From the NCBI GenBank assembly GCA_036517475.1, contig DATDVZ010000007.1:1706-65705 (forward strand): a DNA stretch of 64,000 nt, read 5' to 3'. How positions within the stretch are numbered: the first letter of the stretch is position 1; each line of letters opens with the position of its first letter. The DNA comes from Minisyncoccota bacterium (GTDB taxonomy: Bacteria; Patescibacteriota; Minisyncoccia; Phycocordibacterales; Zambryskibacteraceae). Both the position numbers and the translations under genes were made by a program. This document shows positions 1 through 55,704 of the stretch, piece after piece. The notes under the pieces are model-generated. The model was not told the origin of the DNA and searched no databases. It saw only the letters and a program-made list of their open reading frames with translations.

Positions 1-1227
1 GAATGAATGGACTTTGATTTCAGTCAGTCCTTCACCCAGATAAAAGAGCCTGTCAGCAAATGAAAGAATTCCCCTCGCCTGCGCCTTAAACGGCAGAATT
101 TCCTTCTGTCTGGAGCTCTCATCAACAAAAGAAACCTCTATCTGTCCCGAAGATTTTCTAAGAACAATGTAACCGGAATTATTCCTGATTATTTCAGCAT
201 CAGGGGAAATGCTACTGGCAACTTCTCTGCCTGTAAAAATATCAAGAAGAATCCCTGATGAAAGAAGCACTACCCCGCACTCATAGATTCTCACAGCGGG
301 ATCGTTTTCTCTTTCAATCATTTTTTCAAAAACAAGAGAGCCGGTTGCTAGAGAGAGCTTGACCCTCATCGTCATAGCCTGCTTTGGCACCGACACCCCC
401 GTTTCAAACGGAAATGGCGGGGCAGTGCGCAATCCGCGTTCAAAGACTTCTCTGTACCAATTCAGCAATGAATTGGGAATAAGAGAAAAATTTCGCACTG
501 CACGGTTCAGTCTGACATTCTTTGAGAAAACTGATGCATTATCCTTCATTCTTTTTTCAAGATCTGATCTGTCATAAGAGGGATGTGTGCCTTTATACGG
601 ATGTATTCCTGAAAACAGCTGGAATGTTACTACTGCCCATGAAAACCAGTCGCTATTTTCATCAAATGTTTTGGAATGCCAGTCGCGTATTGAAGGCATC
701 ACTGCAATAGCTCCCCATCGCCCTATTGCCCAAGAATCAACATCTACAATAAGTGGCGAAGGATTACTTCCTTTAAACTTCACAAGCCAGTTGAGCTCAT
801 TGGGATCAACGAGAATTGCCCCGTTATTATGCGCAAAGGCGACAGTCTCGCGCATCTTTTCTGCAAGCTCTTTTGCGTGAGAGGCGCTGAAGCCTTCTCT
901 TTGCCAGAAGTCGTTGGTAAAAACACGTGAGAGCGGATGGGCATCAGCGTAGGGCATGATGTATCCGATCGGCTCTTTTTTTTCCGAATAAGCAAGATCC
1001 AGCGGAGCAACAACGTAGGGACAGTGGAGTTTAGAAAGAATTTTTATCTTATCCGGCAGAGCAAGCGAGCGAAACTGCTTCGGATCACTGTAGATTTTTA
1101 CAACCAGATCAGTACTTAGTCTGTAAATAGAACCCTGACCGCCGGTTGCAATATGGTCTCTTGATTTAAGAGTCACGGTGCCACGGCTACTCAAGAGAAC
1201 TTTTATTGCCGCATTGGCGTTACTCAT
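1..1227 (-). CDS. Ser/Thr protein kinase-like protein (TerY-P triad kinase); C-terminus lies beyond window start
   Basis: Hand translation of minus strand from ATG at 1227-1225 gives an unbroken frame of >400 codons to position 1 (MSNANAAIKVLLSSRG...ATGGQGSIYRL..VVKIY, AFAHNNGAILVDPNELNWLV, DVDSWAIG = Gly-loop/Lys, catalytic-loop-like and DxD-like motifs). Absent from the supplied ORF track because no in-window stop. Start overlaps stop of upstream PP2C gene (ATGA). Confidence 0.6.
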   Translation of the reverse strand, partial: MSNANAAIKVLLSSRGTVTLKSRDHIATGGQGSIYRLSTDLVVKIYSDPKQFRSLALPDKIKILSKLHCPYVVAPLDLAYSEKKEPIGYIMPYADAHPLSRVFTNDFWQREGFSASHAKELAEKMRETVAFAHNNGAILVDPNELNWLVKFKGSNPSPLIVDVDSWAIGRWGAIAVMPSIRDWHSKTFDENSDWFSWAVVTFQLFSGIHPYKGTHPSYDRSDLEKRMKDNASVFSKNVRLNRAVRNFSLIPNSLLNWYREVFERGLRTAPPFPFETGVSVPKQAMTMRVKLSLATGSLVFEKMIERENDPAVRIYECGVVLLSSGILLDIFTGREVASSISPDAEIIRNNSGYIVLRKSSGQIEVSFVDESSRQKEILPFKAQARGILSFADRLFYLGEGLTEIKVHSF

Positions 1228-2084
1228 TCTTCCTCCTTTTGGTCAGTAATTCTTATCACCGCGCCGGAAATATCATCGGATGGCTTAGACCCAGCTTTTT
1301 CAAAATCACGGATTGCCCTCATCATACGGCGCTTGAGAAATTCTCCTTCAAAATTTTTGAAGGAAAGAAATTCCCTTACCGCATCAGTCCACTTAACCCC
1401 CTCGATTTGGGCGACACCGTCGCTAAAGACTGAGAGAATTTCTATTTCATCCATCTCATCTTTTGGAAGAAACTCTGTGACACCAGATATTGCTTCACCG
1501 AGACTAAGTTCATGACTCTCTTCACTTTCACCGGCAGTATCAAGAACGTAAGTGCTTCTTCTGAAACGCAGCGAATTGAGATCGCCGCCATGAGCAGAAA
1601 GAAAACTTTCCAGATTTCCTGCGTATGCAGGATAAATAGGGATGTTATCAATCCATTCATAAAGATTGGCAACTATCCTTCCGTCTTTGTATTTTCTTGC
1701 AATAACTCCGTCTCCTTCTAAATGAAGAATCGCTCTGTCATTCTGAAGGTATGCATAAACTGCAGTTGAAAGAAGATCAGTCTGCGAAAGACCGAGTAAT
1801 TCGCTTGAACTTTTCATAATTTCTGCTGATTTTTCAGAAATTATTTGGCCTGAATTTGCATCAACTAGAGGCGAATTTATTCTGCCCTTCATTGCCCGCA
1901 AGAGTGAGAGTGCCTGAAGGCGGGCGCCAATATCTGTGTGCCTGCCGGAAGAGCAGCCGTCTGAGATGATTGCGCATGCTCTCACTGCATTTGCACCTGA
2001 AAGAGCAAAGTCCTGACATGGCAAACCTTTTTGGTAATGCAGACTTCCGATCTGGAAGTAATGGTCAGCATGAAGTATTTTCAT
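1224..2084 (-). CDS. PP2C-family Ser/Thr protein phosphatase (TerY-P triad phosphatase)
   Basis: 286 aa; ISDGCSSGRHTDIGA and HLEGDGV motifs typical of bacterial PP2C-like phosphatases found next to vWA/kinase; 4-nt overlap with kinase start. Confidence 0.65.
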   Translation of the reverse strand: MKILHADHYFQIGSLHYQKGLPCQDFALSGANAVRACAIISDGCSSGRHTDIGARLQALSLLRAMKGRINSPLVDANSGQIISEKSAEIMKSSSELLGLSQTDLLSTAVYAYLQNDRAILHLEGDGVIARKYKDGRIVANLYEWIDNIPIYPAYAGNLESFLSAHGGDLNSLRFRRSTYVLDTAGESEESHELSLGEAISGVTEFLPKDEMDEIEILSVFSDGVAQIEGVKWTDAVREFLSFKNFEGEFLKRRMMRAIRDFEKAGSKPSDDISGAVIRITDQKEEE

Positions 2085-2111
2085 TTTTTTCTCCTTTTTT
2101 TCTCCAAGGAA

Positions 2112-2136
2112 AAGGGGAACGGCAGTGCCGTTCCCC
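2112..2136 (-). terminator. GC hairpin between vWA and PP2C genes (attenuator/partial terminator candidate)
   Basis: GGGGAACGGCAGTGCCGTTCCCC perfect stem-loop followed on minus strand by T-rich tract, then PP2C RBS/ATG. Confidence 0.35.
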
Positions 2137-2147
2137 GAGTGGTTGTT

Positions 2148-2901
2148 TTATATGGTAGCCGCGATGTTCTGGCTCGGACCACCAGTGCCCAGAGACTGCG
2201 ACTGACTGGAAACTGACTGGGAGATGAAGTTAGCAAGCTTTGCAAGCTTGGATGCAGTTGCGTCCCCCGCATCAATGTATTGCATTCCCGCCTCGCTCTC
2301 CAAGAGTTCAAGACGCGGGCGGAAATTTTGAGCATTGATGCCAACAGCAATACCGATAAGAGACTCAATCTCTTCACCCTGCCGCCCGCGATCCATTTCT
2401 TTGCGGAGCATCTTCGTTGTTGCAGAAGAGGCATTGTCATCTCCATCGGTAACAACAACTACAATGCCGTTAACCAGAAAGTCCTGATCCATGAGCTGTT
2501 TGGCATAGGTGTTTGTGGCACCCAATGCCGAAAAGCAAGCGTCATAGAGAGGAGTGCCGCCACCGGGATAGAGATCAGGATAAGAATCCGGATCAATCTC
2601 GGTTAGAGGCTTAAAACCGTGGATCTCTTCAATCCCGCCAGCAAAGGCAGTTGAGAAAAGAATCACACGCACAAGCATGTTATCCGAACGGGGCGATTTC
2701 TTCAGTGAAGCAATAGCTGTCTTGAGGCACTTTTTCAACTCTGCCTCAAAACCTGAAACCGAACCAGTGACATCAACTGCCACTGTTGCCAAAGTGTACT
2801 CGGTTGCACCGAGTTTCTCCACTTTGGTAGCGGAGAACTTGAAAGCCTGCATACCTCTTATGGAGGCGACCTGCATGCTTTTATCAGTAAGGCGCGGCAT
2901 A
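2148..2901 (-). CDS. von Willebrand factor A (vWA) domain protein, TerY-like
   Basis: VAVDVTGSVSG...VVVVTDGDDN MIDAS-like motifs. Long ORF to 3047 rejected; internal ATG at 2901 preceded by AAGGGAGA RBS and avoids overlap with pncA. Confidence 0.7.
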
Positions 2902-2923
2902 TGATTCTCCCTTTCTTCCGGCC

Positions 2924-3751
2924 TTAGGCCAGAAAATCTTTTGAGGTGGTGAGGGTCATGCCGAGCCTCTGCATATCCTTGAGCCAGTCTGCCGCGATTG
3001 CCGGAAAATCCGGACCGCCAGGCACTGCTCCCACAGGACTCATGCAATCGGTAATGAGCTCAAACTTCTTGATGTGCTCGGTGCCGATATTCTCTGCAAT
3101 CTGATTGACAGTTGTCAAAACGCAGTGGCTTGAAGCTTCTCCCGCAATACCGATTTTGTCGGCAGTGGAGAGCATGTCAAGAACTGCTGTATTGAGAGCC
3201 GTTCCCGGATCTTCAGCGTCGGGAACTTCAGCCATCAATGCACCATAGTGTTCAGTAAAGGGATTAGAGCCCTTGGTGACATAGTCCACAAGCGCAAACT
3301 GATTCTCCGACCAGCGCTGAAGTGAGGCATTGAGATCAGAGTGAACATTGTGACCCCAAGTGCCAATCAGACAATGCTCCGGCCAAACCATCAGAAGATA
3401 CTTGCCGCCGGCTTCCAGACTTCTTGCATACTGCAGAGCCCTTGTGCGAAGCGATGGGTTTCTTGGTGTCCAGAGCCCGGTCTCAATATCGCCTGCGCGA
3501 ATGATTGTAAAAGGCGATGGCCTCTTACCGCTTGCATCAGACCAGAAACCCGGGTGAGCGATGTCAATCTTGCGATGACTGTCCAGCGTGACATGGATGT
3601 CATCGAGCTTGTGCCCGACCCGGTCAATCAATTTGGCAAGCCGCTTCATATCAGCGTCTGCGCCTTTGACCGGCAGAGCAGCCCCTGCGATGTCGCAGAA
3701 GTCATTCTGCGGATCAATGGCCATTAGGTGAACTTTGTAACTGCGTGACAT
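2924..3751 (-). CDS. pncA: isochorismatase-family hydrolase, nicotinamidase-like
   Basis: AIDPQNDF N-terminal Asp motif, conserved Lys and GEASSHCVLTT Cys motif of cysteine hydrolases; adjacent to pncB and nadE. Confidence 0.6.
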   Translation of the reverse strand: MSRSYKVHLMAIDPQNDFCDIAGAALPVKGADADMKRLAKLIDRVGHKLDDIHVTLDSHRKIDIAHPGFWSDASGKRPSPFTIIRAGDIETGLWTPRNPSLRTRALQYARSLEAGGKYLLMVWPEHCLIGTWGHNVHSDLNASLQRWSENQFALVDYVTKGSNPFTEHYGALMAEVPDAEDPGTALNTAVLDMLSTADKIGIAGEASSHCVLTTVNQIAENIGTEHIKKFELITDCMSPVGAVPGGPDFPAIAADWLKDMQRLGMTLTTSKDFLA

Positions 3752-3848
3752 AATTTTTTTCTCCTTTTTGTGGGTTAGTTTTTTGTTACTGTAGCCTGCG
3801 AAATTTTACTTCTTTTCCTCCTTTCTTTATTTTGATTTCAATGTACTA

Positions 3849-3865
3849 AGTGTTCTAAGTACACT
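3849..3865. promoter_or_regulatory. inverted repeat AGTGT-N7-ACACT upstream of pncA
   Basis: AGTGTtctaagtACACT about 95 nt upstream of pncA ATG; same half-sites and spacing as site in front of nadE (5457-5473). Confidence 0.4.
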
Positions 3866-3927
3866 ATATTCTTATGTTATTTATTGTCAAGCATACACTA
3901 ACTAAAATGTGGATAAAATAAAAAAAC

Positions 3928-3958
3928 CCTCGATCGTTTCCAATCGAGGGCTCTATAC
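3928..3958 (-). terminator. rho-independent terminator after pncB
   Basis: Minus strand CCCTCGATTGGAAACGATCGAGGG hairpin followed by TTTTTTT directly after pncB stop. Confidence 0.6.
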
Positions 3959-3960
3959 CT

Positions 3961-5283
3961 TTATACTTTGACGACTTGACTAATTCGGCCTCTGTTGCCG
4001 AATATCCAGATATACCTTTCTATCTCCTCTTTCGGGCCGGTGGCTTTGCCAATATTGTCAGAAAGTTTAACGCAAGGTCTGCCATTTGCACTTACTACTT
4101 TGCAAACCATCGAGAAGGGACGAAGAAGCGGATACTTGGGGTGACAGCCTCTAAAATCATTTCCAAAGAGTGTCCCCCACCCGAATGATAGGTTGATCTT
4201 ATCTCCGAGCTCTTTTTGAATTTCAATCATTGAACCAACATCAAGGCCATCTGATGGAATCATTAGCTTGGACTTAGGATCAACACCGTGGCGCTTGAGC
4301 CAGTTAATATAGCGATACCCTGACTGCACTGGATCTCCTGAATCCTGACGGAAGCCCTTCCAGTCAAGGAGAAACTTCGGAGCATTCTCAAAAAACTGCG
4401 CTGTCCCATATGTATCGGGTAAGAAAATTCTCAGCCCCGGACCATATACCTCTTGCCAAAGAAGAGGCACTCTGTACTGCTGCCGAAGCATTTCCTGCTC
4501 TGAATCCTCTAGAGCAGTAAGGACCATGGGAAGTTCATGGGCATTAGTGCCGATGGGAATCAAATCATAGTGAAATGCCATCCATGTATTTGATGTTCCC
4601 ACAAGCAACTCTGGAAAATTTCTCGCCGTAAAACCAACAGCATGCTTCTGCCAGAGAAAACTATGCCGCCTTCTCTGACAGAAATCTGAAAAGCGAATAT
4701 TGTTATCTGAAAGCAGTTCAAGCTTTCGGATAAGTTTGCCCTCTGCATTTTCATAAATCTCAATCAGATCCTGATCCGGAATACTTCTCATCACAGCGCG
4801 GTTATAGAGCTCATTGACAATTGCTACAGCAATAGTCTCCCACATGGTTGCCGTCTCCCACGGCCCACTGAATTCGAGCTCAATACTCTCGCCTTTCATT
4901 TCAAGCTTGTAGGGAGAGAGCCGAAAGTTTTCGAGAAACTCAAGGTAGCTTTCATTGAACATATTTGCCTGATAGAGATTGATCCCCCGCAGGTAATATA
5001 AGTCAGTGCGCCTGAATGCAACTCCCATCATGTAATCAAGACTTTGACGTAAGTCATCTTCCCTGATCAGGGCTCCAACTAGCACATCAGGATCGCGGAT
5101 GATGAGTTTAAATGTAACCTCTGTACCGCGAAACTTGATAAATATAAACTGTCCCATGGTGAACTTATAGAAGTCCACATCCATGAGAGAGCGTACCGGA
5201 GGGTGAAAACTCGTCTGCGTCTCGCGCACCATGTCTACAAAATCTCTGGCTTTTAATCCCTTCTCAAACTCGGCGGTCTGCAT
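3961..5283 (-). CDS. pncB: nicotinate phosphoribosyltransferase
   Basis: 440 aa; DVDFYKFTM, SGPWETATMWE, GTSNTW, IGTNAHE, RQDSGDP, LSFGWGT, KLSDNIGK match conserved NAPRTase blocks. Confidence 0.8.
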   Translation of the reverse strand: MQTAEFEKGLKARDFVDMVRETQTSFHPPVRSLMDVDFYKFTMGQFIFIKFRGTEVTFKLIIRDPDVLVGALIREDDLRQSLDYMMGVAFRRTDLYYLRGINLYQANMFNESYLEFLENFRLSPYKLEMKGESIELEFSGPWETATMWETIAVAIVNELYNRAVMRSIPDQDLIEIYENAEGKLIRKLELLSDNNIRFSDFCQRRRHSFLWQKHAVGFTARNFPELLVGTSNTWMAFHYDLIPIGTNAHELPMVLTALEDSEQEMLRQQYRVPLLWQEVYGPGLRIFLPDTYGTAQFFENAPKFLLDWKGFRQDSGDPVQSGYRYINWLKRHGVDPKSKLMIPSDGLDVGSMIEIQKELGDKINLSFGWGTLFGNDFRGCHPKYPLLRPFSMVCKVVSANGRPCVKLSDNIGKATGPKEEIERYIWIFGNRGRISQVVKV

Positions 5284-5456
5284 ATCTCCCTCCCTTTTTG
5301 TAGTCGTTAATGTAATTGTGAAAGAACACTTGCCTCATATGAGGCAGAAAACTGGAATGAATTTGATTGCAGTTTTCTGCCACCTATTGCTTTACAAGCT
5401 ATAACATTCTTGATAGTCTTGTCAACATTGATTATGTGTTGTCTTCAATTAAAAAT

Positions 5457-5473
5457 AGTGTATTATTAACACT
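5457..5473. promoter_or_regulatory. inverted repeat AGTGT-N7-ACACT immediately upstream of nadE (within ATAGTGT-N7-ACACTAT)
   Basis: atAGTGTattattaACACTat ends 7 nt before nadE ATG; overlaps expected promoter/leader. Confidence 0.4.
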
Positions 5474-5479
5474 ATATAC

Positions 5480-7426
5480 ATGAGAAATAAAAAGTCAAAT
5501 GCAAATGAATACGGCTTCCTACGCGTTGCCTCAGTAGTACCCGCTCTTAAGCTTGGCAATATTTCATATAATGAAATTGAGATTGAAAAAAGTACCAGAA
5601 GTGCCGAGTCGAAGGGCGCAAGACTTGTGGTTTTTCCCGAGCTTTCAGTAACCGGATATTCTATCGGCGATCTCTTGCATCAGGAAATTATTCTTAAAGA
5701 AACCAAAAAGGCGCTATTATCACTGGCACTGAAATTAAAAAAACTTAATTGTGTTGTGGTGATCGGAGCTCCCCTAGTTATCACCGATAAGCTATTTAAT
5801 ACTGCTGTTGCAATTTCTAAAGGAAAAATAATTGCAATCGTGCCAAAAACCTATCTTCCAAGTTATAAGGAATTCTATGAGAAAAGATGGTTTTCTTCAG
5901 GGAGAGATTGTTCTGTAACAGAGACAATGATAGGTAACCAGAGGGTCTCCGTCGGTACAGATATTCTCCTTAAGATAGATGGCACTCTTGTGGCAATTGA
6001 AATATGTGAAGATCTCTGGAGTGCGCTGCCACCGAGTTCATATCATGCCCTCTCGGGTGCGGGCGTTATTGCCAACCTTTCATCATCAAATGAACTTGTC
6101 GGAAAAGCGCAATACAGGAAGGATTTGATAAAGAATCAATCAGCTAGATGCATTGCTGGATATGTTTACAGCGCATCCGGAGTAAATGAATCCACGATGG
6201 ATATTGTTTTTTCCGGTCATGCAATAATTGCCGAGAACGGGACAATACTTAATGAAGCGGAAACCTTCAGGGGCGATACCCAGATGATTATTTCTGACAT
6301 TGATATTGAACACATACTTGCTGACAGAGAAAGAATTACAAGTTTTGCCGATACGGCATCAGCTAATTTCAGAACTTACAGAACCTTTGAAATCAAACTA
6401 AGCCCAAAAGCAAAAACAGATCTGCTAAGAAGTGTGCCACAAAGACCTTTCATACCTGAAACGAAAGAAGAGTTATATGAAGTAGCCCAAGAGGTATTTA
6501 ATATTCAGGTTGCGGGACTCTCAACAAGGCTCAATCATGCAAAAATAAAAAACGCAGTAATCGGACTCTCCGGAGGGCTTGATTCCACTCTTGCCCTCCT
6601 TGTTGCAATTGAGGCTTTCAAAAAAATTTCCTTGCCTTTAAAAAACATCCACGCATTTACAATGCCGGGATTTGGGACAACCAAAACTACAAAATCAAGC
6701 GCTCACCTGCTCTCAAAGTCAGTGGGAATTAATATAGAGGAGATTGATATTACAGATGGAGTAAGATCGCATTTCAGAGATATAAAGCACAATGAAAGAG
6801 TCGAGGATCAGACATTTGAAAACGTGCAGGCAAGATACAGAACAATGCTTCTTCTAAATAAAGCAAACCAGCTTAGAGCCATTATGATCGGCACTGGAGA
6901 TCTTTCAGAAATCGCTCTTGGCTGGACTACATTTGGCGGCGATCATATGTCCCATTACAATGTGAACTGCGGAGTTCCAAAAACTTTGGTCAAGCACCTA
7001 ATCCAATGGTTTGCCGTAGAATCACAAGATAAAAAATTAAAAACAATACTAAATAAAATTCTTGAAACACCGATTTCTCCGGAACTTAAAAGGCATAGCA
7101 AGGGTAAGATCATTCATAAAACAGAAGATATAATAGGGCCATACGAATTACATGATTTTTTCCTTTACCACTTTATCCGCTGGGGATCAAAGCCTAAGAA
7201 AATATTATTTCTTGCAAAATACGCCTTTTTGAAAAAATACTCTGAACAAAAAATTAAGAATACTCTCAAAATTTTCATAGAAAGATTTTTCAACAACCAA
7301 TGGAAGCGCTCCGTCATGCCAGACGGGCCAAAGGTCGGATCAGTTTCACTTTCACCCCGAGGCGACTGGAGAATGCCATCTGATGCGGATGCAAAACTCT
7401 GGATCAGAGATACTGACACGGCTTGA
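5480..7426 (+). CDS. nadE: glutamine-dependent NAD+ synthetase (nitrilase-like domain + NAD synthetase domain)
   Basis: 648 aa; N-terminal CN-hydrolase motifs (VFPELSVTGY, EICEDLW), C-terminal PP-loop GLSGGLDSTLALLVA. Confidence 0.85.
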   Translation: MRNKKSNANEYGFLRVASVVPALKLGNISYNEIEIEKSTRSAESKGARLVVFPELSVTGYSIGDLLHQEIILKETKKALLSLALKLKKLNCVVVIGAPLVITDKLFNTAVAISKGKIIAIVPKTYLPSYKEFYEKRWFSSGRDCSVTETMIGNQRVSVGTDILLKIDGTLVAIEICEDLWSALPPSSYHALSGAGVIANLSSSNELVGKAQYRKDLIKNQSARCIAGYVYSASGVNESTMDIVFSGHAIIAENGTILNEAETFRGDTQMIISDIDIEHILADRERITSFADTASANFRTYRTFEIKLSPKAKTDLLRSVPQRPFIPETKEELYEVAQEVFNIQVAGLSTRLNHAKIKNAVIGLSGGLDSTLALLVAIEAFKKISLPLKNIHAFTMPGFGTTKTTKSSAHLLSKSVGINIEEIDITDGVRSHFRDIKHNERVEDQTFENVQARYRTMLLLNKANQLRAIMIGTGDLSEIALGWTTFGGDHMSHYNVNCGVPKTLVKHLIQWFAVESQDKKLKTILNKILETPISPELKRHSKGKIIHKTEDIIGPYELHDFFLYHFIRWGSKPKKILFLAKYAFLKKYSEQKIKNTLKIFIERFFNNQWKRSVMPDGPKVGSVSLSPRGDWRMPSDADAKLWIRDTDTA

Positions 7427-12758: not shown

Positions 12759-13430
12759 TCAGACTGATGTGGTAGAGTGTTTAGCAAGGATTTCTCTGAT
12801 TTTTGGATGGTGTATAACGCTAAAAATTTTCATATCAACCATTACTCCTGCCGGAGGATTGCTTAAAAAATCATGAGCCTCAATGAGAGGAACAGTTACA
12901 ACTTCAATATCTTCTCCCGTCTCAAGTTCTGGCTCTGTCACTTTCACGGCATTTAATCCGAGATAAATCACCATATTGTCTTCAACCAAACCTGAATTTA
13001 TCGGCCCTGAAAAAAGCCGGATGACTGAAGAAACTTTATAACCAGTTTCCTCAGTGAGTTCTCTCATCGCTAAAGATTCTTCCTCCTCGCCCTGCTTATC
13101 CATAATACCAGCACAAAGCTCAATAACCCACGATCTAAGAGGAATACGGTAATTTTTTGTAAGAATTAATCTGTCATCCGCTGTGATTGCAGCAATGCCG
13201 ACAATTCTTCCGAAAGTTTTGCGCTTTACACACTCCCAAATTCCCTCTCCGCCTGTTGCATTGTTGCGGAAATGGCGATTGGTAACTGTAATAAACTTGC
13301 CGTCATAGACAAGTTCCTCCTCAAGAATCTCTAAGTTTGTATTTCTCATTATCCTCCAAAATATTTTTCTACTCTTAATGGATACTACATTAGGCAAATA
13401 ATAAATCAAATAGTTTTTATCTCCTTGCAA
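12759..13430 (-). CDS. Nudix hydrolase, ADP-ribose pyrophosphatase-like
   Basis: Nudix box GIMDKQGEEEESLAMRELTEETG; true start may be internal Met (MRNTNLEIL...). Confidence 0.65.
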   Translation of the reverse strand: MQGDKNYLIYYLPNVVSIKSRKIFWRIMRNTNLEILEEELVYDGKFITVTNRHFRNNATGGEGIWECVKRKTFGRIVGIAAITADDRLILTKNYRIPLRSWVIELCAGIMDKQGEEEESLAMRELTEETGYKVSSVIRLFSGPINSGLVEDNMVIYLGLNAVKVTEPELETGEDIEVVTVPLIEAHDFLSNPPAGVMVDMKIFSVIHHPKIREILAKHSTTSV

Positions 13431-13738
13431 ACTAAAAACCGAGTTATTTCTATAACTCGGGCTTGTTTAGACACTATTTTTCCATTTCTGCTTCCGCGCG
13501 CCTTTGGGCAGCCAACCTTGCCAAAATCCGATTATTCTCATTATTCTGGGGAGAAAGTAAATAATCGGGAGCGGTGTATCTGCCACTTGGGCGGTCTTCG
13601 GGAGAGATTTTCATACTTTTTCTTTTGCCTGAATTACGATCTCGGCGCGGTCCTCTCATGATATACTCCGAATTTGGATCTGGGTTTAATTATAATCAGA
13701 AATATTTTTTTGAAAAGTGGAAATAAAAAAATTGTTTA

Positions 13739-14641
13739 TTATTCGTTATAAGCCCTTTTTAATCCTTCAATATCAATCTTTTTCATTTGAAGCATTGCTT
13801 TCATCACCCTTTCAGACTTTACAGGATCCGGGTCGCTCAAGTACTCTCCTAGAATTTTAGGAATGATCTGCCATGAAAAATCAAATTTATCGGCAAGCCA
13901 TCCGCACTGTTGCGCCTTTGAATCGGCTTCTTCTGTCAACTTATTCCAGTAATAATCAACCTCATTTTGATCTTCACACTCAACATGAAAGGATATTGCC
14001 CCACTTACTTCGAACTTATGTGGAAAACTGTTCTCCATTGCCCGAAAAGGCTGCCCCTCCAGAAGAAAATGTGAATATTTTATCTTTCCCTCAACGTCCC
14101 CTTCGTCCTTCTCGTATCTTGCAATAGTTTCAATTGAAGAATTTTTAAATATTCCCATATAAAAATTTATCGCCTCATCGCATTTGCCGAAGTGTTTGCC
14201 AATAAACATCAGTGACGGAATTATTTTCCCACCATTCTTTTCTGTGTTTATCTGCCAAGATACTCCGAATCTGTCCTGGAGCCAGCCATATTTTTCCGCC
14301 CACGGATATTGCTGAAATGGCATCAGTATTTCCCCATCAGCAGAAAGTTTATCGTAAAAATTTTGAGCCACGTCTGCATTTGCGCAGGTTATTGTAAAAG
14401 AGACTGATGGATTGAATTTGAAATGCGGGCCGCCGTCGAGGGCCATAAAGCGTTGTCCCATAAGCTCAAAGACAGCTGTTATAATTTTTCCTTGGAATCC
14501 TTCCCACGCCGGGTGAAGCGCTTTTTCAGGATAGCGTTTGATGCTTACAATTCTTGAATTATCAAAAATTGAAATATAAAAATTCATCGCTTCCTGGCAA
14601 TTCTTGTCAAACCATAAAAACGGAGTGATTTTTTGAATCAT
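13739..14641 (-). CDS. VOC-superfamily protein with two tandem PhnB/3-demethylubiquinone-9 3-methyltransferase-like domains
   Basis: Two repeats each starting ITPFLWFD / IIPSLMFIG with conserved aromatic pattern of PF06983-type domains. Confidence 0.55.
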   Translation of the reverse strand: MIQKITPFLWFDKNCQEAMNFYISIFDNSRIVSIKRYPEKALHPAWEGFQGKIITAVFELMGQRFMALDGGPHFKFNPSVSFTITCANADVAQNFYDKLSADGEILMPFQQYPWAEKYGWLQDRFGVSWQINTEKNGGKIIPSLMFIGKHFGKCDEAINFYMGIFKNSSIETIARYEKDEGDVEGKIKYSHFLLEGQPFRAMENSFPHKFEVSGAISFHVECEDQNEVDYYWNKLTEEADSKAQQCGWLADKFDFSWQIIPKILGEYLSDPDPVKSERVMKAMLQMKKIDIEGLKRAYNE

Positions 14642-14680
14642 AGTTATTTGGTTTTATTAACAGTTTAAAAAAACTACAGA

Positions 14681-14794
14681 TTAAAGTCTTTTGCGTTTTG
14701 CTGAAAGCCTCGCGTGTTTTATCGCCAGGCGTTTTTTTGTTTTCCTGGAACGAGAGGTTTTATTTTTTGTATTTACACTAAGTCTTTTTGCCAT
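14681..14794 (-). CDS. small basic protein (37 aa), possible divergent ribosomal protein L34-like
   Basis: MAKRLSVNTKNKTSRSRKTKKRLAIKHARLSAKRKRL; Arg/Lys-rich, length and C-terminal KRKRL reminiscent of L34 but similarity weak; below ORF-track size cutoff. Confidence 0.25.
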   Translation of the reverse strand: MAKRLSVNTKNKTSRSRKTKKRLAIKHARLSAKRKRL

Positions 14795-14968
14795 GGTTCA
14801 ATATTACTCACCATGGCCCTGAATTAAATTAATTGAAGGGCCATAAGTTGTAACTATACCCCGTGAGATACAGATAATATACTAAGTATTGTAACATGGG
14901 AATCATTATCTCATGGGGTATACACTAATTAACTGACAGCGCGAACAAATTATTCTAATTTTTAATAA

Positions 14969-15565
14969 TCAGCGGATACCAGTGTCACATGAAAGGGTAA
15001 TATTTTGCGTGGGACCAGAAATTTCAAAACTTTCCTCCTTGCATAAAGGATAAGGATTGCCGCTTCGCGGTATAAACTTATATGCTCCATAAGAGAGATA
15101 AAAAGTGACTTTCCCCTTCCCATCGGTTGGCCTGCTCGTAACTAAGTTTGCATCACTGTAAACATCAACTGATGTCAGATAAGGTTTTGGAGCACAATTT
15201 GGATCTGGAGGAATTCTTTCCACCGGACAAGTCGGCCCAAGCAGAACCTCTACATAGACAACCGTACTCTTGGCGGGGGTGGCCGGGCATGCCTTAAACT
15301 GGCAAGTTGGCGGGGTCCGACTGACATATGAACCATCTGGACAGAGTTTCACATCGGCCGTACAGAAAATTTGCTCCGACCCATCTGGCAGTGTTGAAGG
15401 CGTTGATGTCGGAGTAATTGAGGTAGATGTACTAGACATTTTTTCCCCCGGTAAAATACTTCCGATCGGTAAATTATCTTTTTGCCAAAAAAGTACAACC
15501 AGAACAGCGGCTGCCACAATAACTCCAATTAATATTCCGTTTTTTGAATTCATATTTGATATCAA
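14969..15565 (-). CDS. membrane-anchored Cys-rich secreted protein, hypothetical
   Basis: N-terminal TM helix, Ser/Thr/Pro-rich linker, 8+ Cys. Confidence 0.4.
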   Translation of the reverse strand: MISNMNSKNGILIGVIVAAAVLVVLFWQKDNLPIGSILPGEKMSSTSTSITPTSTPSTLPDGSEQIFCTADVKLCPDGSYVSRTPPTCQFKACPATPAKSTVVYVEVLLGPTCPVERIPPDPNCAPKPYLTSVDVYSDANLVTSRPTDGKGKVTFYLSYGAYKFIPRSGNPYPLCKEESFEISGPTQNITLSCDTGIR

Positions 15566-15658
15566 AAATTGCCTGCCCGCTCAAATCCTGCTTACGGGAT
15601 TTGAACGGGAAAATTGAATTTTTAGTATATCAGACGACAAAATGATTATTTAATGAAC

Positions 15659-15970
15659 TTATTTGCCGAGGAATACTAAAACTAAAACAATAAACACAAT
15701 TACGATTCCGGCAAAAAATCCTAAAGTTTTTAAAAAATAGTTTACCGCTTCCTGCTTAAGCCCGTCCATATATAACTTGAATGGCTCAAAAACAAAAAGA
15801 TACCCCATTAAGGCCGCCGACAACACAAAAAGACCAATCATAACCATTGGCATGAAAATTGTTCTCTCCAACGATGTAATGGAAGTTGTCGTCTGCATAA
15901 CAAAGACAATAATCACGATGTATATTGCAGCCGCTATTGCATTAACTATTGGGTTCTTGTTCATGAGCAC
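15659..15970 (-). CDS. small integral membrane protein
   Basis: 103 aa, three hydrophobic helices. Confidence 0.4.
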   Translation of the reverse strand: MLMNKNPIVNAIAAAIYIVIIVFVMQTTTSITSLERTIFMPMVMIGLFVLSAALMGYLFVFEPFKLYMDGLKQEAVNYFLKTLGFFAGIVIVFIVLVLVFLGK

Positions 15971-16016
15971 ATTGTATCATTTTGTAAAATAACCGCCCAA
16001 ATGGCGGTTATTTTTC

Positions 16017-16571
16017 TTAACTTCTCTCCTTCATGATTTCAATGAGAAATTCCGCCTTCTTGCCTTCGGATTTGAGAAGTGTAGGTAGTGTAAGATCACT
16101 TCTCAAACTTTGCATATCTTCATCAAAATCCGGATCCTCAAAACTACATTGAGCAAACCCAGCAAAGTGTAGAGATTCAACCTTATCACCAAGAGTAAAT
16201 TCAATAATAGCTACCATAGCATGCTTGGCATAATATGGTGATCGTTTGTTTACTACTCCAAAAAAATGATCACAAACCCTATCTCTAATTGTTTGGTGAT
16301 CTGTGCCTAAAGTGAGAAATGGTTGAACAATTTTACTCACTCCCTCTCTTTCAGGAACGCAACCTTTTGGCAACATTCCTAACACAAAAGATAAATATCT
16401 TTCAACAAGTTCTGATGTTATGCCGGGGAATCTACCTTCAAGAAATGTTAAGAGTTCCTCAACTTCTTTTCCCTGTCGTGCAGTAATATCAATTATATCC
16501 TCGGGAGTAATCTCTGGAAATTCATGAACATTCGACCAAGTAAGTAATGCCCCCAGTCGCCGATTGCTCAT
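16017..16571 (-). CDS. hypothetical protein
   Basis: 184-aa ORF, no motif recognised. Confidence 0.4.
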   Translation of the reverse strand: MSNRRLGALLTWSNVHEFPEITPEDIIDITARQGKEVEELLTFLEGRFPGITSELVERYLSFVLGMLPKGCVPEREGVSKIVQPFLTLGTDHQTIRDRVCDHFFGVVNKRSPYYAKHAMVAIIEFTLGDKVESLHFAGFAQCSFEDPDFDEDMQSLRSDLTLPTLLKSEGKKAEFLIEIMKERS

Positions 16572-16698
16572 TTATACTCCTCCTCTTTGAAGTCAGGTTT
16601 TGATTACAATTCTATTGACACCCTACACTTTTTTAAATTACGGTCAATTTAAGTATATCTATACTTTTTATTCATTGTTATTTATTCATTGTTCCCTG

Positions 16699-17319
16699 CT
16701 ATATTTTCTCGTAAAATACGGCTTTCCCTTTTATTCCAACTTGTCTTATCCTCCCCTCACTCTCCAACATTGAAAGATATCTTGTGGCGGTAGCATCAGA
16801 GACATGCAAAAGCTTCTCTACTTCATCGTTCGTGATCCTTGTTCGCTTCGCAAATAATTCCATAATTTTTTCAATTTTTTTTCTCTTCCTTGCCCGAATT
16901 ACATTTCCGGCTTTAGTAAGAAGTTCGCGAACTGGATTTCGAGTAAACGGCTCAATTGGTGGGAATTGAGCCGTTTGATTTAAAACCGGAGGTGTTTCCT
17001 TGGGTAGCGGAGAGGACAGAAGTAAATCCTCAGATTTTTCTTCAGTATTTTCAGGGGCTGTAGTTTCTGCAGGTGCTGTCGCATCACCCCCTGAAACCAC
17101 TTCCGTGGTTTCAGGGGGTATGTTTTCATTTATCGCATCAACCGGCACATCAACTGTTTCAGAACTTGCTTGTGGTGAGTTAATCGAATCCACCTGCGGT
17201 AAGCTTGTCGAATCCACCTGTGGTGAGCTAGTCGAATCCACTTGCGTCTCCGCAGGCACTTCAGGAATCACAGTAATAGGATTTTGATCAGAATTTTGAT
17301 TTTCTGGTTCATTAGTCAT
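16699..17319 (-). CDS. winged-helix DNA-binding protein with N-terminal tandem peptide repeats
   Basis: Repeats VDSTSSPQ/VDSTSLPQ/VDSINSPQ; C-terminus EVEKLLHVSDATATRYLSMLESEGRIRQ typical wHTH. Confidence 0.45.
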   Translation of the reverse strand: MTNEPENQNSDQNPITVIPEVPAETQVDSTSSPQVDSTSLPQVDSINSPQASSETVDVPVDAINENIPPETTEVVSGGDATAPAETTAPENTEEKSEDLLLSSPLPKETPPVLNQTAQFPPIEPFTRNPVRELLTKAGNVIRARKRKKIEKIMELFAKRTRITNDEVEKLLHVSDATATRYLSMLESEGRIRQVGIKGKAVFYEKI

Positions 17320-17762
17320 GTTGAAATTATATCAATTCTCTCAATAAGGGATTTAAATATTTTGGCAATTGTCGCGATAAGATATGTATTCTATGCGTAA
17401 CCAGCTTATTTGAACACCGTGATTGGTACAAGTTACTGCATACGCCCTATCACGATGTATACTTTCAAAGTCATGCCAACTTGTACGAAGATTCAAAGCA
17501 AATATAACTATAATCAACGAAATAATTATCCCTAACAAATATAGATATTTCTTCATATTAAAAATTTATTTGTTAATCCAGCACCCGATAAACACTAACA
17601 TCCCCATCTTTTACCATTAAAATAATATAGTAAATTTATTATAAACAAACTATATGCTAATTTGCGCCTGCCCCGTAATGAACGTAGTTCTACTATTGGG
17701 GTAAATAAGCATATAGTTTGACTTAGGGTTTATAGTTATAAAAATTAAATAAAAAACCCGTA

Positions 17763-18134
17763 TTAACGGGCTCTCTTTTGGAGAATTCTTTCTCGCGCTT
17801 CTGATGTTGCATTCAATCCTTTTTGCCGGATTTCTTCAGGGCTATCATAGGCATTCACCACAACAAATGCAACCGCTAATCGCTCCCTCTGACGTCTGAT
17901 TTGAAAATAGCGGATTGCTCTGTATGAACTTTTTATCTGAACAAAGATCTTACCAACATCCGTATGTGCAATAGCGTCAATTCCCCTATAATCCTCTTCT
18001 CTACTTGCTCTTTCAATTCTGTAAAGCCATTCCGGCAAAGGTACACCTTGTGAAAAAGCAGAGAAGAATTTGTTTTCATTAATTCTCCCCCTCTCTTGGC
18101 CGATTTTCCCAATCAAGCTTCTTACTCTAGACAC
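17763..18134 (-). CDS. small PD-(D/E)xK nuclease-fold-like protein, hypothetical
   Basis: GIDAIAHTD...IFVQIKSS matches D...(D/E)xK arrangement; terminator hairpin CCCGTTAATACGGG+T-run downstream. Confidence 0.35.
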   Translation of the reverse strand: MSRVRSLIGKIGQERGRINENKFFSAFSQGVPLPEWLYRIERASREEDYRGIDAIAHTDVGKIFVQIKSSYRAIRYFQIRRQRERLAVAFVVVNAYDSPEEIRQKGLNATSEARERILQKRAR

Positions 18135-18258
18135 TACCCCTCCTTTTTAGATATCTTAAACTAATTTAAAACAATCCCCCAATTTTGTCAAAAAATTTTT
18201 TAGAATTTTGATTCTCTTATTCGTCTAGCAAGATCAAATTATATCAGTCCACAAATCT

Positions 18259-18286
18259 ATTCTCTTATTCTCGAGAATAAGAGAAT
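18259..18286. repeat. 28-bp perfect palindrome ATTCTCTTATTCTCGAGAATAAGAGAAT, copy A (plus conserved flank to 18310)
   Basis: Exact repeat of 19550-19577; flank TTGGCAAAGATTATCAGCG also shared. Confidence 0.8.
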
Positions 18287-18303
18287 AGATTTGGCAAAGA
18301 TTA

Positions 18304-18642
18304 TCAGCGGAGTTGGCTGCCCAGATCAATTGAAGGTTTCTTGGGTTCAATAAGCACCCAGCCGTCTCCCTCATTATTGCGGAAGCCGAGTGTAAGGACT
18401 TCAGAAGCAAAAGGTCCAATTTGTTTTGGCGAAAAATTTATTACGCAACACACTAAAGAATTCAATAATTCTTCTTTAGTATGCGCTCCGACAGCTTGAA
18501 CACTGGATTGTTTCGTCCCTACTTCAGTTCCAAAGTCAATTTTTAATTTATATGCCGGTTTTTTCGCTTCAGGAAAATCCGAAACCTCAACCACTTTCCC
18601 CACCCGAATATCAACTTTCTCAAAATCTTCGAATGTAATCAT
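18304..18642 (-). CDS. tRNA-binding domain protein (CsaA/Trbp111/EMAP-II-like OB fold)
   Basis: KVDIRVGKVVEV...; characteristic myf-domain pattern. Confidence 0.65.
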   Translation of the reverse strand: MITFEDFEKVDIRVGKVVEVSDFPEAKKPAYKLKIDFGTEVGTKQSSVQAVGAHTKEELLNSLVCCVINFSPKQIGPFASEVLTLGFRNNEGDGWVLIEPKKPSIDLGSQLR

Positions 18643-50388: not shown

Positions 50389-50700
50389 TTATAAACGACG
50401 TAGAGCGAGAGAAATGAAAAATTCTTATTTTTCATTTCCGAGCCGAGGAGTTTATATAGTATCCAATTATATAAACGACGTAGAGTGAAAAAGCGAAAAC
50501 ATGGAGCTTTTGCAAGGTCGGAGCACGACGGTGCGAGACAGGATCGAAAGATTTTTCAGTAGAAAAATACTTTTGATAGAGAAGTGAGAAAGTTTACTTT
50601 CTCACTTACGAGCCGAGGTGAGGAAGCGAATACATGGAGCCCATTCGGGTCTGAAAGACCCTCAGGGTCTTAAACGACTTCGCAAGACTTTGAGCTCCGA
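50389..50700 (-). repeat. family R repeats, two partial/variant copies in tandem (inverted orientation)
   Basis: TTATAAACGACGTAGAGCGAGAG...CCGAGCCGAGGAG (rc of 3' module) at 50389-50466 and a second rearranged copy 50471-50700. Confidence 0.6.
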
Positions 50701-55197: not shown

Positions 55198-55704
55198 ATG
55201 TTTAAATTTATCCAGCAATATTTTCTGAAAGAAAATAGTGCTGGGTTTACACTAATTGAATTACTTATTGTAATCTCCCTTATAACAATTATTTCCGGTC
55301 TGACATCAGTTTTAGGTTTTGATCTCATCAGAGTAGGAGGAGGCAGATCCGAGAAGGACAACCTTGTGAGTCTACTCCAGAGAGCAAGATCAAAATCACT
55401 GAATAATATAGGAGAATTGCGCCATGGAATTCATTTTGAAGTTAATCCTTACAAATTAACCGCTTTTTCCTGCAAGGACTGTGAAGGTTTTGAGGGTGCA
55501 TCAATTGAGTCGGAGTACTCCCCCGCAATAAAAAATTTTGAGATTATTTCTCCCAACATTCCCTTTGATATTTTATATGATCAGCTAAGCGGCAATTGCA
55601 TTAGCGCTCCCTGTGGAAGCGGAGTTGTAATCAAAGTAAGCGATGGCACAAAAATCAGCAACATTTTTATAAGTAAAGTCGGACAAATTGACGCAAATAA
55701 ATGA
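55198..55704 (+). CDS. type IV pilin-like protein
   Basis: GFTLIELLIVISLITIISGL prepilin N-terminus. Confidence 0.6.
   Translation: MFKFIQQYFLKENSAGFTLIELLIVISLITIISGLTSVLGFDLIRVGGGRSEKDNLVSLLQRARSKSLNNIGELRHGIHFEVNPYKLTAFSCKDCEGFEGASIESEYSPAIKNFEIISPNIPFDILYDQLSGNCISAPCGSGVVIKVSDGTKISNIFISKVGQIDANK

Follow-up and report, generated by a model that had tools for sequence, protein, structure and literature searches.

A vWA–PP2C–kinase triad of the TerY-P type linked to a nicotinamidase gene and a predicted NAD-salvage regulon

The four genes of the operon

In this work, we analysed a stretch of 64,000 nucleotides (hereafter the window; positions 1,706 to 65,705 of contig DATDVZ010000007.1, assembly GCA_036517475.1) from the genome of a Minisyncoccota bacterium of the Patescibacteriota. 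The first 2.9 kb of its minus strand hold three tightly packed and co-directional genes, encoding a vWA protein, a PP2C-type phosphatase and a Ser/Thr protein kinase, which a preliminary description had recognised as a triad of the TerY-P type. All three genes are present and intact. Judging from their sequence and from that of related loci, they form the distal part of a unit of four genes headed by a nicotinamidase gene, and this unit is predicted to belong to an NAD regulon.

The first gene of the operon (2924..3751, minus strand) ends 23 nt upstream of the vWA start and encodes a protein of 275 aa, which profile matches and residues assign to a long form of the PncA-like nicotinamidases (isochorismatase superfamily). 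In a comparison of a 13-sequence profile with the PDB, all four matches were solved nicotinamidases, namely yeast Pnc1 (2h0r, E = 6e-9), 29iv (1.4e-7), PncA of Mycobacterium tuberculosis (3pl1, 2.5e-6) and 1ilw (2.4e-4). The Pfam family Isochorismatase stays below its cutoff on the single sequence, yet it is recorded on many homologues, for which JGI uses the name 'nicotinamidase/pyrazinamidase'. Thirteen divergent sequences all share residues D13, K160 and C210, as well as D57, H59 and H126, which correspond in the alignment to D8/K96/C138 and D49/H51/H71 of PncA from M. tuberculosis; from the PncA literature, we take the first three to be the catalytic Asp-Lys-Cys triad and the others to be the metal site. 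Over the 98 complete modules that we compared, conservation reaches at least 97% at K160, C210, D57, H59 and H126 and falls below 97% at D13. The protein is a predicted nicotinamide deamidase, an activity backed by its context, namely the adjacency of pncB and nadE (see below). Compared with the solved enzymes (~180-215 aa) it is long, owing to an insertion of ~50 aa and a C-terminal extension, and its family comprises 5,535 clusters at 90% identity. A GGPDFP motif in the C-terminal extension was considered as a marker of the link to the triad and rejected, given that 40 linked copies lack it and three unlinked copies have it.

The second gene (2148..2900, minus strand) encodes a vWA protein of the TerY/YegL type with 250 aa. 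The stop end of its frame had been placed correctly; the ATG lies at 2900 instead of 2901. Pfam VWA reached only 14.4 bits, below the cutoff, and nothing rose above threshold in Pfam, NCBIfam, PDB sequence or profile searches, a single-sequence PDB match to RstA being spurious, which left structure prediction to decide the fold. The AlphaFold2 (AF2) model (pLDDT 86, pTM 0.86) found in Foldseek only vWA or integrin I domains as top PDB matches, and the predicted fold is unambiguously of the vWA/integrin-I kind. Moreover, the metal ion-dependent adhesion site (MIDAS) is complete, with D43-x-T-x-S47, T116 and D152 invariant. The vWA assignment of the preliminary description thus holds on fold and MIDAS residues and not on the Pfam score. 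Homologues are named 'YegL' by JGI, and at 90% identity the family falls into 1,632 clusters. The protein ends in a Ser- and Gln-rich tail of 26 residues, FxSQSVSSQSQSLGTGGPSQxIxxTI, which hardly varies among 28 close sequences and is also conserved in a broader set of 123; the model leaves residues 238-250 disordered. We infer that this tail is the best candidate for a phospho-acceptor or docking motif.

The third gene (1224..2084, minus strand) encodes a PP2C-type Ser/Thr phosphatase of 286 aa, with the extent and the assignment first given to it: PF13672 (PP2C_2) scored 44.4 bits against a gathering score of 24, and conservation across the 98 modules is 97% or higher at D25, D42-G43, D125-G126, D222-G223 and D270-D271, among which are the metal-binding Asp residues. 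As had been reported, its stop overlaps the kinase start in an ATGA at 1227-1224, and the spacing between these two genes has a median of -4 nt in the same modules.

The window contains the N-terminal 409 of the 578 codons of the Ser/Thr protein kinase (1..1227, minus strand, open at the left edge). From 1227 to base 1 the frame is free of stops and, since it runs off the window, it was absent from the list of open reading frames, as the preliminary description had remarked. The edge was extended with two contigs found by exact-protein look-up, L001 (99.99% identity over 12,084 nt) and L002 (100% identity over 7,517 nt), both of which continue past it. These contigs supply the last 169 codons, followed by the stop, a GC hairpin and a T-run; as the near-identical contigs carry an intact kinase of 578 aa, the concern that the gene might be a pseudogene was removed. 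The NCBI entry for the identical protein reads hypothetical protein and comes from a metagenome-assembled genome (MAG) of Candidatus Paceibacterota.

Pfam Pkinase gave the kinase 29.2 bits, just below its gathering score of 31.7; its fold and its catalytic residues support the assignment nonetheless. The AF2 model (pLDDT 82) predicts a bilobed kinase domain over approximately residues 1-270 and had more than 1,800 PDB matches in Foldseek at E <= 0.001, with protein kinases throughout among the matches listed. Conservation in the 98 modules reaches 97% or more at K44, D141, N143, E144, D162 and D164, and the motifs D141-x-N-E-x-N146 and D162-V-D164-S-W are, like K44, invariant or nearly so. In the model, a disordered linker leads to an all-beta domain of ~290 aa (residues 290-578) with ~29 strands, and the best multi-domain Foldseek match was LRRK2, a protein with a kinase and a WD40 domain. 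The C-terminal domain may thus be described as propeller-like. The family alignment showed no conserved cysteine in the C-terminal half.

The spacer between the vWA and PP2C genes contains a terminator-like hairpin (2114..2136, minus strand), which had already been pointed out as a GC hairpin; it is real, and its extent is corrected here. A stem of 10 bp, eight of them G-C, encloses a 3-nt loop and is followed by TTTTCCTT. The predicted energy is -27.6 kcal/mol (z = -5.6) and none of 200 dinucleotide shuffles folded as well. At 87 loci, z falls below -2 for 86% of the corresponding spacers (median energy -26.9 kcal/mol), and many are followed by T-runs, the hairpin being kept as a structure without conservation of sequence. 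It is likely an attenuator or a 3'-end stabiliser. The simplest reading of the hairpin, together with the overlap of the PP2C and kinase genes, is attenuation, by which nicotinamidase and vWA protein would be made in excess of the enzyme pair and the PP2C:kinase ratio would be fixed.

We scanned GTDB with the kinase profile, one genome per species, and annotated 80 loci with custom hidden Markov models. Nicotinamidase, vWA, PP2C and kinase genes were co-directional and in this order in every one of the 71 kinase-anchored loci with at least 2.9 kb upstream. In the reciprocal scan of metagenome contigs, with the nicotinamidase as anchor, a vWA gene was adjacent in 49 of the 55 loci with room for a next gene, and the loci without it had plain pncA-pncB(-nadE) arrangements. 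Mean identity over the 98 modules is 56% for the nicotinamidase, 53% for the vWA protein, 41% for the kinase and 35% for PP2C, and the pairwise distances of the four proteins correlate (r = 0.60-0.87). On this sequence comparison, the four genes travel as a unit. Synteny in related genomes thus keeps the order of the described triad and adds to it a fourth, upstream gene, the nicotinamidase.

The G+C content of the four-gene operon (window 1-3751) is 47.3%, against a window mean of 39.4%. This could reflect a horizontal origin or the composition of strongly conserved proteins.

NAD-salvage genes and NrtR-type operators

The operon is flanked on both sides by genes related to NAD. Upstream of it lies pncB (3961..5283, minus strand), encoding nicotinate phosphoribosyltransferase (NAPRTase 112 bits, NAPRTase_N 77 bits), and then, in the opposite orientation, nadE (5480..7426, plus strand), encoding a glutamine-dependent NAD synthetase with CN_hydrolase and NAD_synthase domains and present as an identical gene in L001. 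On the other side, just outside the window, L001 carries an nrtR gene (12961-13653) with NUDIX, WHD_AraR and WHD_NrtR domains, which is convergent with the kinase gene and lies ~370 nt past the kinase stop. In 36 of the 46 loci with at least 15 kb of sequence, pncB, nadE or nrtR was found within 8 kb of the module. Among the neighbours scanned in the window and the called genes of L001, the search for additional Ter partners suggested earlier gave no Ter gene and these NAD genes instead.

A putative intrinsic terminator after pncB (3923..3954, minus strand), with a 14-bp stem followed by a T-run, would part this gene from the four-gene operon. The operon has a sigma-70-like candidate promoter (3863..3890, minus strand), with TTGACA at 3890-3885, a spacer of 16 nt and TATAGT at 3868-3863; with 11 of 12 consensus positions matched, it is the best within the first 5.6 kb. 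Two NrtR-type operators overlap it. Operator A (3881..3901; TTAGTGT-N7-ACAATAA) was found by a palindrome scan, with six of seven arm pairs, and overlaps the -35 box; it was located at position -151 in L001 and converted to window coordinates. Operator B (3847..3867; ATAGTGT-N7-ACACTTA), a 21-bp palindrome with a GT-N7-AC core found by pattern search, overlaps the -10 box. Additionally, the divergent control region of pncB and nadE contains a perfect operator of this type, ATAGTGTATTATTAACACTAT (5455..5475), with zero mismatches, which overlaps promoter-like sites on both strands.

The pattern search of the window gave three matches, against 0.12 expected by chance. The third, at 55235-55255, lies inside a type IV pilin-like gene (55198-55704; N-terminal GFTLIELLIV) and is probably fortuitous. 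In 1.73 Mb of related loci, TAGTGT-N7-ACACTA with at most one mismatch occurred at 168 sites, against 1-6 in shuffles. Within 300 nt downstream of these boxes stood the nicotinamidase gene in 71 cases, nrtR in 21, pncB in 16 and nadE in seven; further genes behind a box encode NadD-like, PnuC, Prs and NAD kinase proteins. According to PMC2330246, an NrtR site overlaps the promoter or lies downstream of it and is a 21-bp palindrome built around a GT-N7-AC core, from which NrtR is released by ADP-ribose. As the boxes recur upstream of NAD genes and match these published sites, we regard the four-gene operon as a predicted member of an NAD regulon, to which NrtR would bind.

In the pncB/nadE control region (5439-5498), the plus-strand -10 box ends at 5466 and the ATG of nadE lies at 5480. 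This would leave the nadE mRNA almost without a leader, unless the real start is at another place.

Distribution and relation to known systems

The preliminary description held that such a triad is unusual in a minimal, AT-rich genome. Our data indicate the opposite: among the 80 GTDB loci, 59 have names of the Patescibacteria type, clustering at 50% identity gives 838 representatives of the kinase family (E <= 1e-30; nearly all of them full length), and the cassette is typical of the Patescibacteria lineage. Several labels of MAGs outside this lineage (Micavibrio, Rickettsiales and others) are doubtful; for instance, the nicotinamidase of L058 is 90% identical to that of a Moraniibacteriota locus. 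As secure hosts outside the Patescibacteria we accepted only three Bradyrhizobium isolates and Variovorax plasmids. In the three isolates, the module has a G+C content of 63-64%, the same as its flanks, and belongs to a syntenic island of ~17 kb with genes for a radical SAM protein, Dam, an RNase_T exonuclease, DUF1643, a HerA-like ATPase and an integrase. These regions are listed as viral genomes in IMG/VR (the range of L169 is that of L053). The Variovorax megaplasmids carry PP2C, kinase and pncB genes followed by genes for MazG-like, NADAR and NAD synthase proteins, the kinase being hypothetical in RefSeq. In plasmid 2 of Variovorax sp. SRS16 (L209; NZ_LR594667.1, 607880-627331), the order is PP2C-kinase-pncB, AlkB, MazG-like pyrophosphohydrolase, NADAR and NAD synthase, and neither a nicotinamidase nor a vWA gene occurs within 9 kb. 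This locus is surrounded by numerous small hypothetical genes and one for a DNA methyltransferase.

All four genes were also found, in order, in two genomes labelled 'uncultured phage' in GenBank, LR745208.1 (485 kb) and LR756511.1 (595 kb), which we presume to come from the huge-phage survey of Al-Shayeb et al. 2020. In IMG/VR, the kinase occurs in 40 contigs and the module in nearly all of them. Several viral contigs (L200/L206, L182, L180/L186 and L173) have pncB and nadE inside the module, in the order nicotinamidase-vWA-pncB-nadE-PP2C-kinase in L200/L206 and L182 and nicotinamidase-vWA-PP2C-pncB-nadE-kinase in L180/L186; in L200, the end of nadE and the beginning of the PP2C gene overlap. 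A few of the contigs listed by IMG/VR probably come from cells, such as the 411-kb contig L167, which carries nrtR. PHROGs contained no real family for the four proteins, giving weak matches only.

Some loci have additional genes in or beside the cassette. The Bradyrhizobium modules contain an extra open reading frame of ~128 aa between PP2C and kinase (L064 7597-7983; also L053 and L061), and a huge phage has one of 123 aa in the same slot (L207 14368-14739); homology between the two was considered and rejected, the sequences being unrelated. A protein of ~385-405 aa with Nuc_deoxyri_tr2 (PF15891) and NUDIX domains is encoded beside the cassette in L004 (11884-13038), L018, L024, L034, L087 and L207 (19461-20675). 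Its copies from Patescibacteria and huge phages match at E = 1e-133, and it may be an NAD- or nucleoside-linked accessory. In L004, from Moranbacteria, the cassette is followed by genes for AbiV-type HEPN, SocA/Panacea, KilA-N, HTH_17 and Fic proteins (13227-18447), an insertion with the look of defence or mobile DNA, on the far side of which stand pncB and nadE.

TerY-P, as defined in PMC11090510 (after Anantharaman et al. 2012), has been proposed to be a metal-sensing phosphorylation switch, often encoded on mobile or defence islands, with kinases that end in a zinc ribbon in the classic form or an OB fold in the defence variant. The earlier statement that such triads are essentially uncharacterised is dated, since TerY-P-like modules reportedly protect against T7-like phages (PMC7699616, PMC11090510) and YegI and PphC of Escherichia coli were studied biochemically (bioRxiv 10.1101/819920). 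TerY-P triads of CoCoNuT/Ter loci and the TerY-P-like defence modules of Gao et al. 2020 follow the same three-component logic of vWA, PP2C and kinase as the cassette. They differ from it in that their partner is a nuclease or McrBC system and not a metabolic enzyme such as the nicotinamidase, in that the beta domain of the cassette kinase is much larger than a zinc ribbon or OB fold, and in the control of the cassette by a putative NAD-regulon operator. No TerD, TerZ, TerB or other Ter family was found in the 10 open reading frames of at least 140 aa at window 7.4-17.3 kb, in L001 or in the Bradyrhizobium flanks, nor was there a restriction gene among the scanned window neighbours or the called genes of L001; restriction- or defence-like neighbours of the cassette occur only in some other genomes. 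The TerY-P identity proposed earlier holds, consequently, for the vWA-PP2C-kinase architecture and the YegI-type kinase and not for the C-terminal zinc ribbon or OB fold or the association with Ter genes.

The closest comparison is with the yegL-pphC-yegJ-yegI cluster of E. coli K-12, for which the surrounding 14 kb were compared. YegL, PphC and YegI are encoded in the same order as the vWA protein, phosphatase and kinase of the cassette. Our kinase profile matches the kinase domain of YegI (hhalign probability 96.9%, E = 1.9e-10), and both kinases have the atypical motifs GGEG, D-x-N-x-x-N/S, D-x-D-S-[WF] and HPY and stay below the gathering score of Pfam Pkinase. Likewise, PphC (YegK) and the cassette phosphatase are both PF13672 proteins. 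YegL matches the vWA profile weakly (hhalign E = 2.8e-4, probability 41%), with its Ser-repeat C-terminal helix aligned. With the architecture and two of the three components in agreement, we assign the cassette to the YegL/PphC/YegI type. There are also differences. YegI, of 648 aa, is described as a double-pass inner-membrane protein (10.1101/819920), whereas the cassette kinase, of 578 aa, has a predicted soluble all-beta C-terminus; the vWA protein of the cassette has, compared with YegL, an extra invariant GTGGPSQ...I tail; the E. coli cluster is interrupted by yegJ, unlike the cassette; and the annotation of the 14 kb around it shows neither a nicotinamidase or NAD gene nor an NrtR box. 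PADLOC returned no TerY-P match for the triad proteins, a negative that is uninformative because the archetypal YegL-PphC-YegI triad of E. coli gives none either.

Two further kinds of systems resemble other parts of the cassette. The NrtR-controlled pncA-pncB(-nadD-nadE) operons described by Rodionov et al. 2008 (PMC2330246) have, like the cassette, a Nudix-type regulator nearby and 21-bp GT-N7-AC operators on their promoters, and the targets listed there include pncA, pncB, nadE, nadD, pnuC and prs, which are also found at cassette loci; the regulon table of that paper, and its passages with the words 'kinase' or 'phosphatase', name no protein kinase, protein phosphatase or vWA gene as part of an NrtR regulon. 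The phage pathways NARP1 (Adps and Namat), NARP2 (Nampt and Nmnat) and NARP3 (PnuC and a NadR-like protein) are NAD-rebuilding genes carried by phages (bioRxiv 10.1101/2024.02.11.579819, PMC13464706), as are the phage-borne cassettes with pncB and nadE; they lack PncA, PncB and NadE as well as a kinase/phosphatase/vWA switch, unlike the cassette. In the literature that we searched, no paper links a TerY-type triad, or a vWA-kinase-phosphatase set, with a nicotinamidase or NrtR. The triad type, NrtR-controlled NAD-salvage operons and phage NAD reconstitution are already known.

Possible role of the triad in NAD salvage

A functional coupling of the triad to NAD salvage appears to us very likely, and is best supported by the interleaving with pncB and nadE, the shared operator and the adjacency in all 71 loci. 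That the triad is the distal part of a four-gene operon in an NAD-salvage regulon, and acts as a phospho-switch on NAD salvage, is in our opinion probable. In the model that we propose, NrtR would bind the two operators over the -35 and -10 boxes of the operon and would be released, as in characterised NrtR proteins, by ADP-ribose, a product of NAD breakdown. The nicotinamidase would then convert nicotinamide to nicotinate, feeding PncB and NadE, whose neighbouring genes have an operator of the same type. Given the terminator-like hairpin after its gene, the vWA protein may be made in excess, as a stoichiometric adaptor and probable phospho-acceptor through its MIDAS site and Ser/Gln tail. The kinase, with intact catalytic residues, a propeller-like all-beta sensor domain and apparent translational coupling to PP2C, would write phosphorylation and PP2C would erase it, which would set the engagement of the vWA protein with a partner. 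This partner would most likely be the nicotinamidase or another salvage enzyme, and the switch would therefore gate the recycling of NAD. We infer the NrtR binding, the phospho-target, the vWA partner and the direction of regulation. The more specific proposal, in which a sensor kinase and PP2C set the phosphorylation state of the vWA tail and this state controls the nicotinamidase or some other step of salvage, is put forward only tentatively, and we would not be surprised if it proved wrong.

Some points weigh against the explanation that we favour. Six or seven loci of the PncA family have no adjacent triad, so the nicotinamidase can work without it. A box with at most one mismatch stands upstream of the PncA-like gene in only 50 of 142 loci (approximately one third), and the promoter and terminator of the operon are consensus matches only. 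The propeller assignment rests, for its part, on the strand count and a single multi-domain Foldseek match to LRRK2, and the kinase substrate and the vWA partner are candidates. In Bradyrhizobium, moreover, neither NAD genes nor NrtR occur within 8 kb of the module, whose integrase-bearing island looks more like a conflict island.

This island would fit a rival explanation, that the module is a stand-alone anti-phage defence of the TerY-P kind, in which the kinase senses infection, the vWA protein and PP2C set the threshold and the nicotinamidase is an effector or accessory; in one variant, the removal of nicotinamide could starve the NAD-rebuilding enzymes of phages. Besides the Bradyrhizobium island, with its integrase, Dam, RNase_T exonuclease and HerA-like ATPase, this explanation draws on the protection against T7-like phages reported for TerY-P-like triads (PMC7699616, PMC11090510), on the patchy distribution of the four co-inherited genes beyond the Patescibacteria, on the AbiV-HEPN, SocA/Panacea, KilA-N and Fic genes that follow the module in L004, and on a G+C content of the module region 8 points above that of the window. 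We nevertheless consider it unlikely, as conservation is unusually high (53-56% mean identity for the vWA protein and nicotinamidase over 98 modules), the adjacency of pncB, nadE and nrtR is fixed in many Patescibacteria loci, and the cassette has its operator in common with NAD biosynthesis genes. The presence of the module in huge phage genomes would also be odd for a host defence, and the lack of a PADLOC match, being shared with the E. coli triad, says nothing here. The same phage genomes lead to another explanation, in which mobile elements or phages use the cassette to rebuild NAD (nicotinamide to nicotinate to NaMN to NAD) in the face of NAD-depleting immunity, with the phospho-switch as regulator, and the Patescibacteria have domesticated it. 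The two 'uncultured phage' genomes with the four genes in order, the 40 IMG/VR contigs, several of them with pncB and nadE inside the cassette, the phage-like neighbours in L200 and the viral listing of the Bradyrhizobium regions are consistent with it, and NAD reconstitution by phages is an established counter-defence (bioRxiv 10.1101/2024.02.11.579819, PMC13464706), through described routes without a nicotinamidase. This origin seems to us improbable, nonetheless, as an account of the present operon, which sits within a chromosomal NAD cluster, behind a host-type NrtR operator. IMG/VR may also misassign contigs, as suggested by the 411-kb L167, which bears nrtR and resembles a Patescibacteria genome; the phage status of LR745208.1 and LR756511.1 is a GenBank label on unannotated records; and a transfer from phages to Patescibacteria is a presumed direction. 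Both the defence and the phage explanations are compatible with a phospho-switch on NAD salvage and not mutually exclusive with it. By contrast, we give hardly any credit to the idea that a generic Ser/Thr triad adjoins housekeeping NAD genes by chance, or that it is a module for tellurite or metal stress. It is true that unrelated genes are densely packed in small genomes, that metal is bound at the vWA MIDAS site and that the name TerY-P comes from tellurite-resistance loci. Against this stand the adjacency in 71 of 71 and 49 of 55 independent loci, in at least three kinds of host or element, the interleaving of the genes with pncB and nadE, and the lack of any Ter family in the scanned window open reading frames, L001 and the Bradyrhizobium flanks.

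TerY-P-type triads are widespread and, to our knowledge, their input and output are not known, the substrate of E. coli YegI being still unidentified. A phospho-switch on NAD salvage would give the triad a concrete and testable output, tied to a nicotinamidase that is co-regulated and sometimes interleaved with pncB and nadE. Our comparison flags ~840 kinase clusters and more than 1,600 vWA clusters, whose named members are mostly 'hypothetical protein' at NCBI. Many systems of phage defence and counter-defence turn on NAD, and the Patescibacteria are generally thought to rely on cofactor salvage. A phospho-switch on nicotinamide recycling in Patescibacteria, proteobacterial mobile elements and huge phages would therefore bear both on the physiology of these symbionts and on the arms race over NAD. 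One may speculate further, and we rate this as rather unlikely, that the cassette is a mobile, phospho-gated and deamidating fourth route of NAD reconstitution (PncA to PncB to NadE), used by huge phages and proviruses against NAD-depleting immunity and domesticated by the Patescibacteria under NrtR as their main route for keeping NAD. If this were true, it would be the first defined physiological output of a TerY-P-type triad.

Two minor observations concern the rest of the window. A second NUDIX-domain gene, for a protein of 223 aa, is located at 12759-13430, ~5 kb beyond nadE. An intergenic element of ~178 nt, without a match in Rfam, occurs in two copies with 92.7% identity. One is at window 50465-50640; the other, at L001 12626-12802, falls shortly beyond the left end of the window, in the interval from the kinase terminator to nrtR. 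The element holds an internal direct repeat, GCGAA[AT]ACATGGAGCTT..GCAAG.

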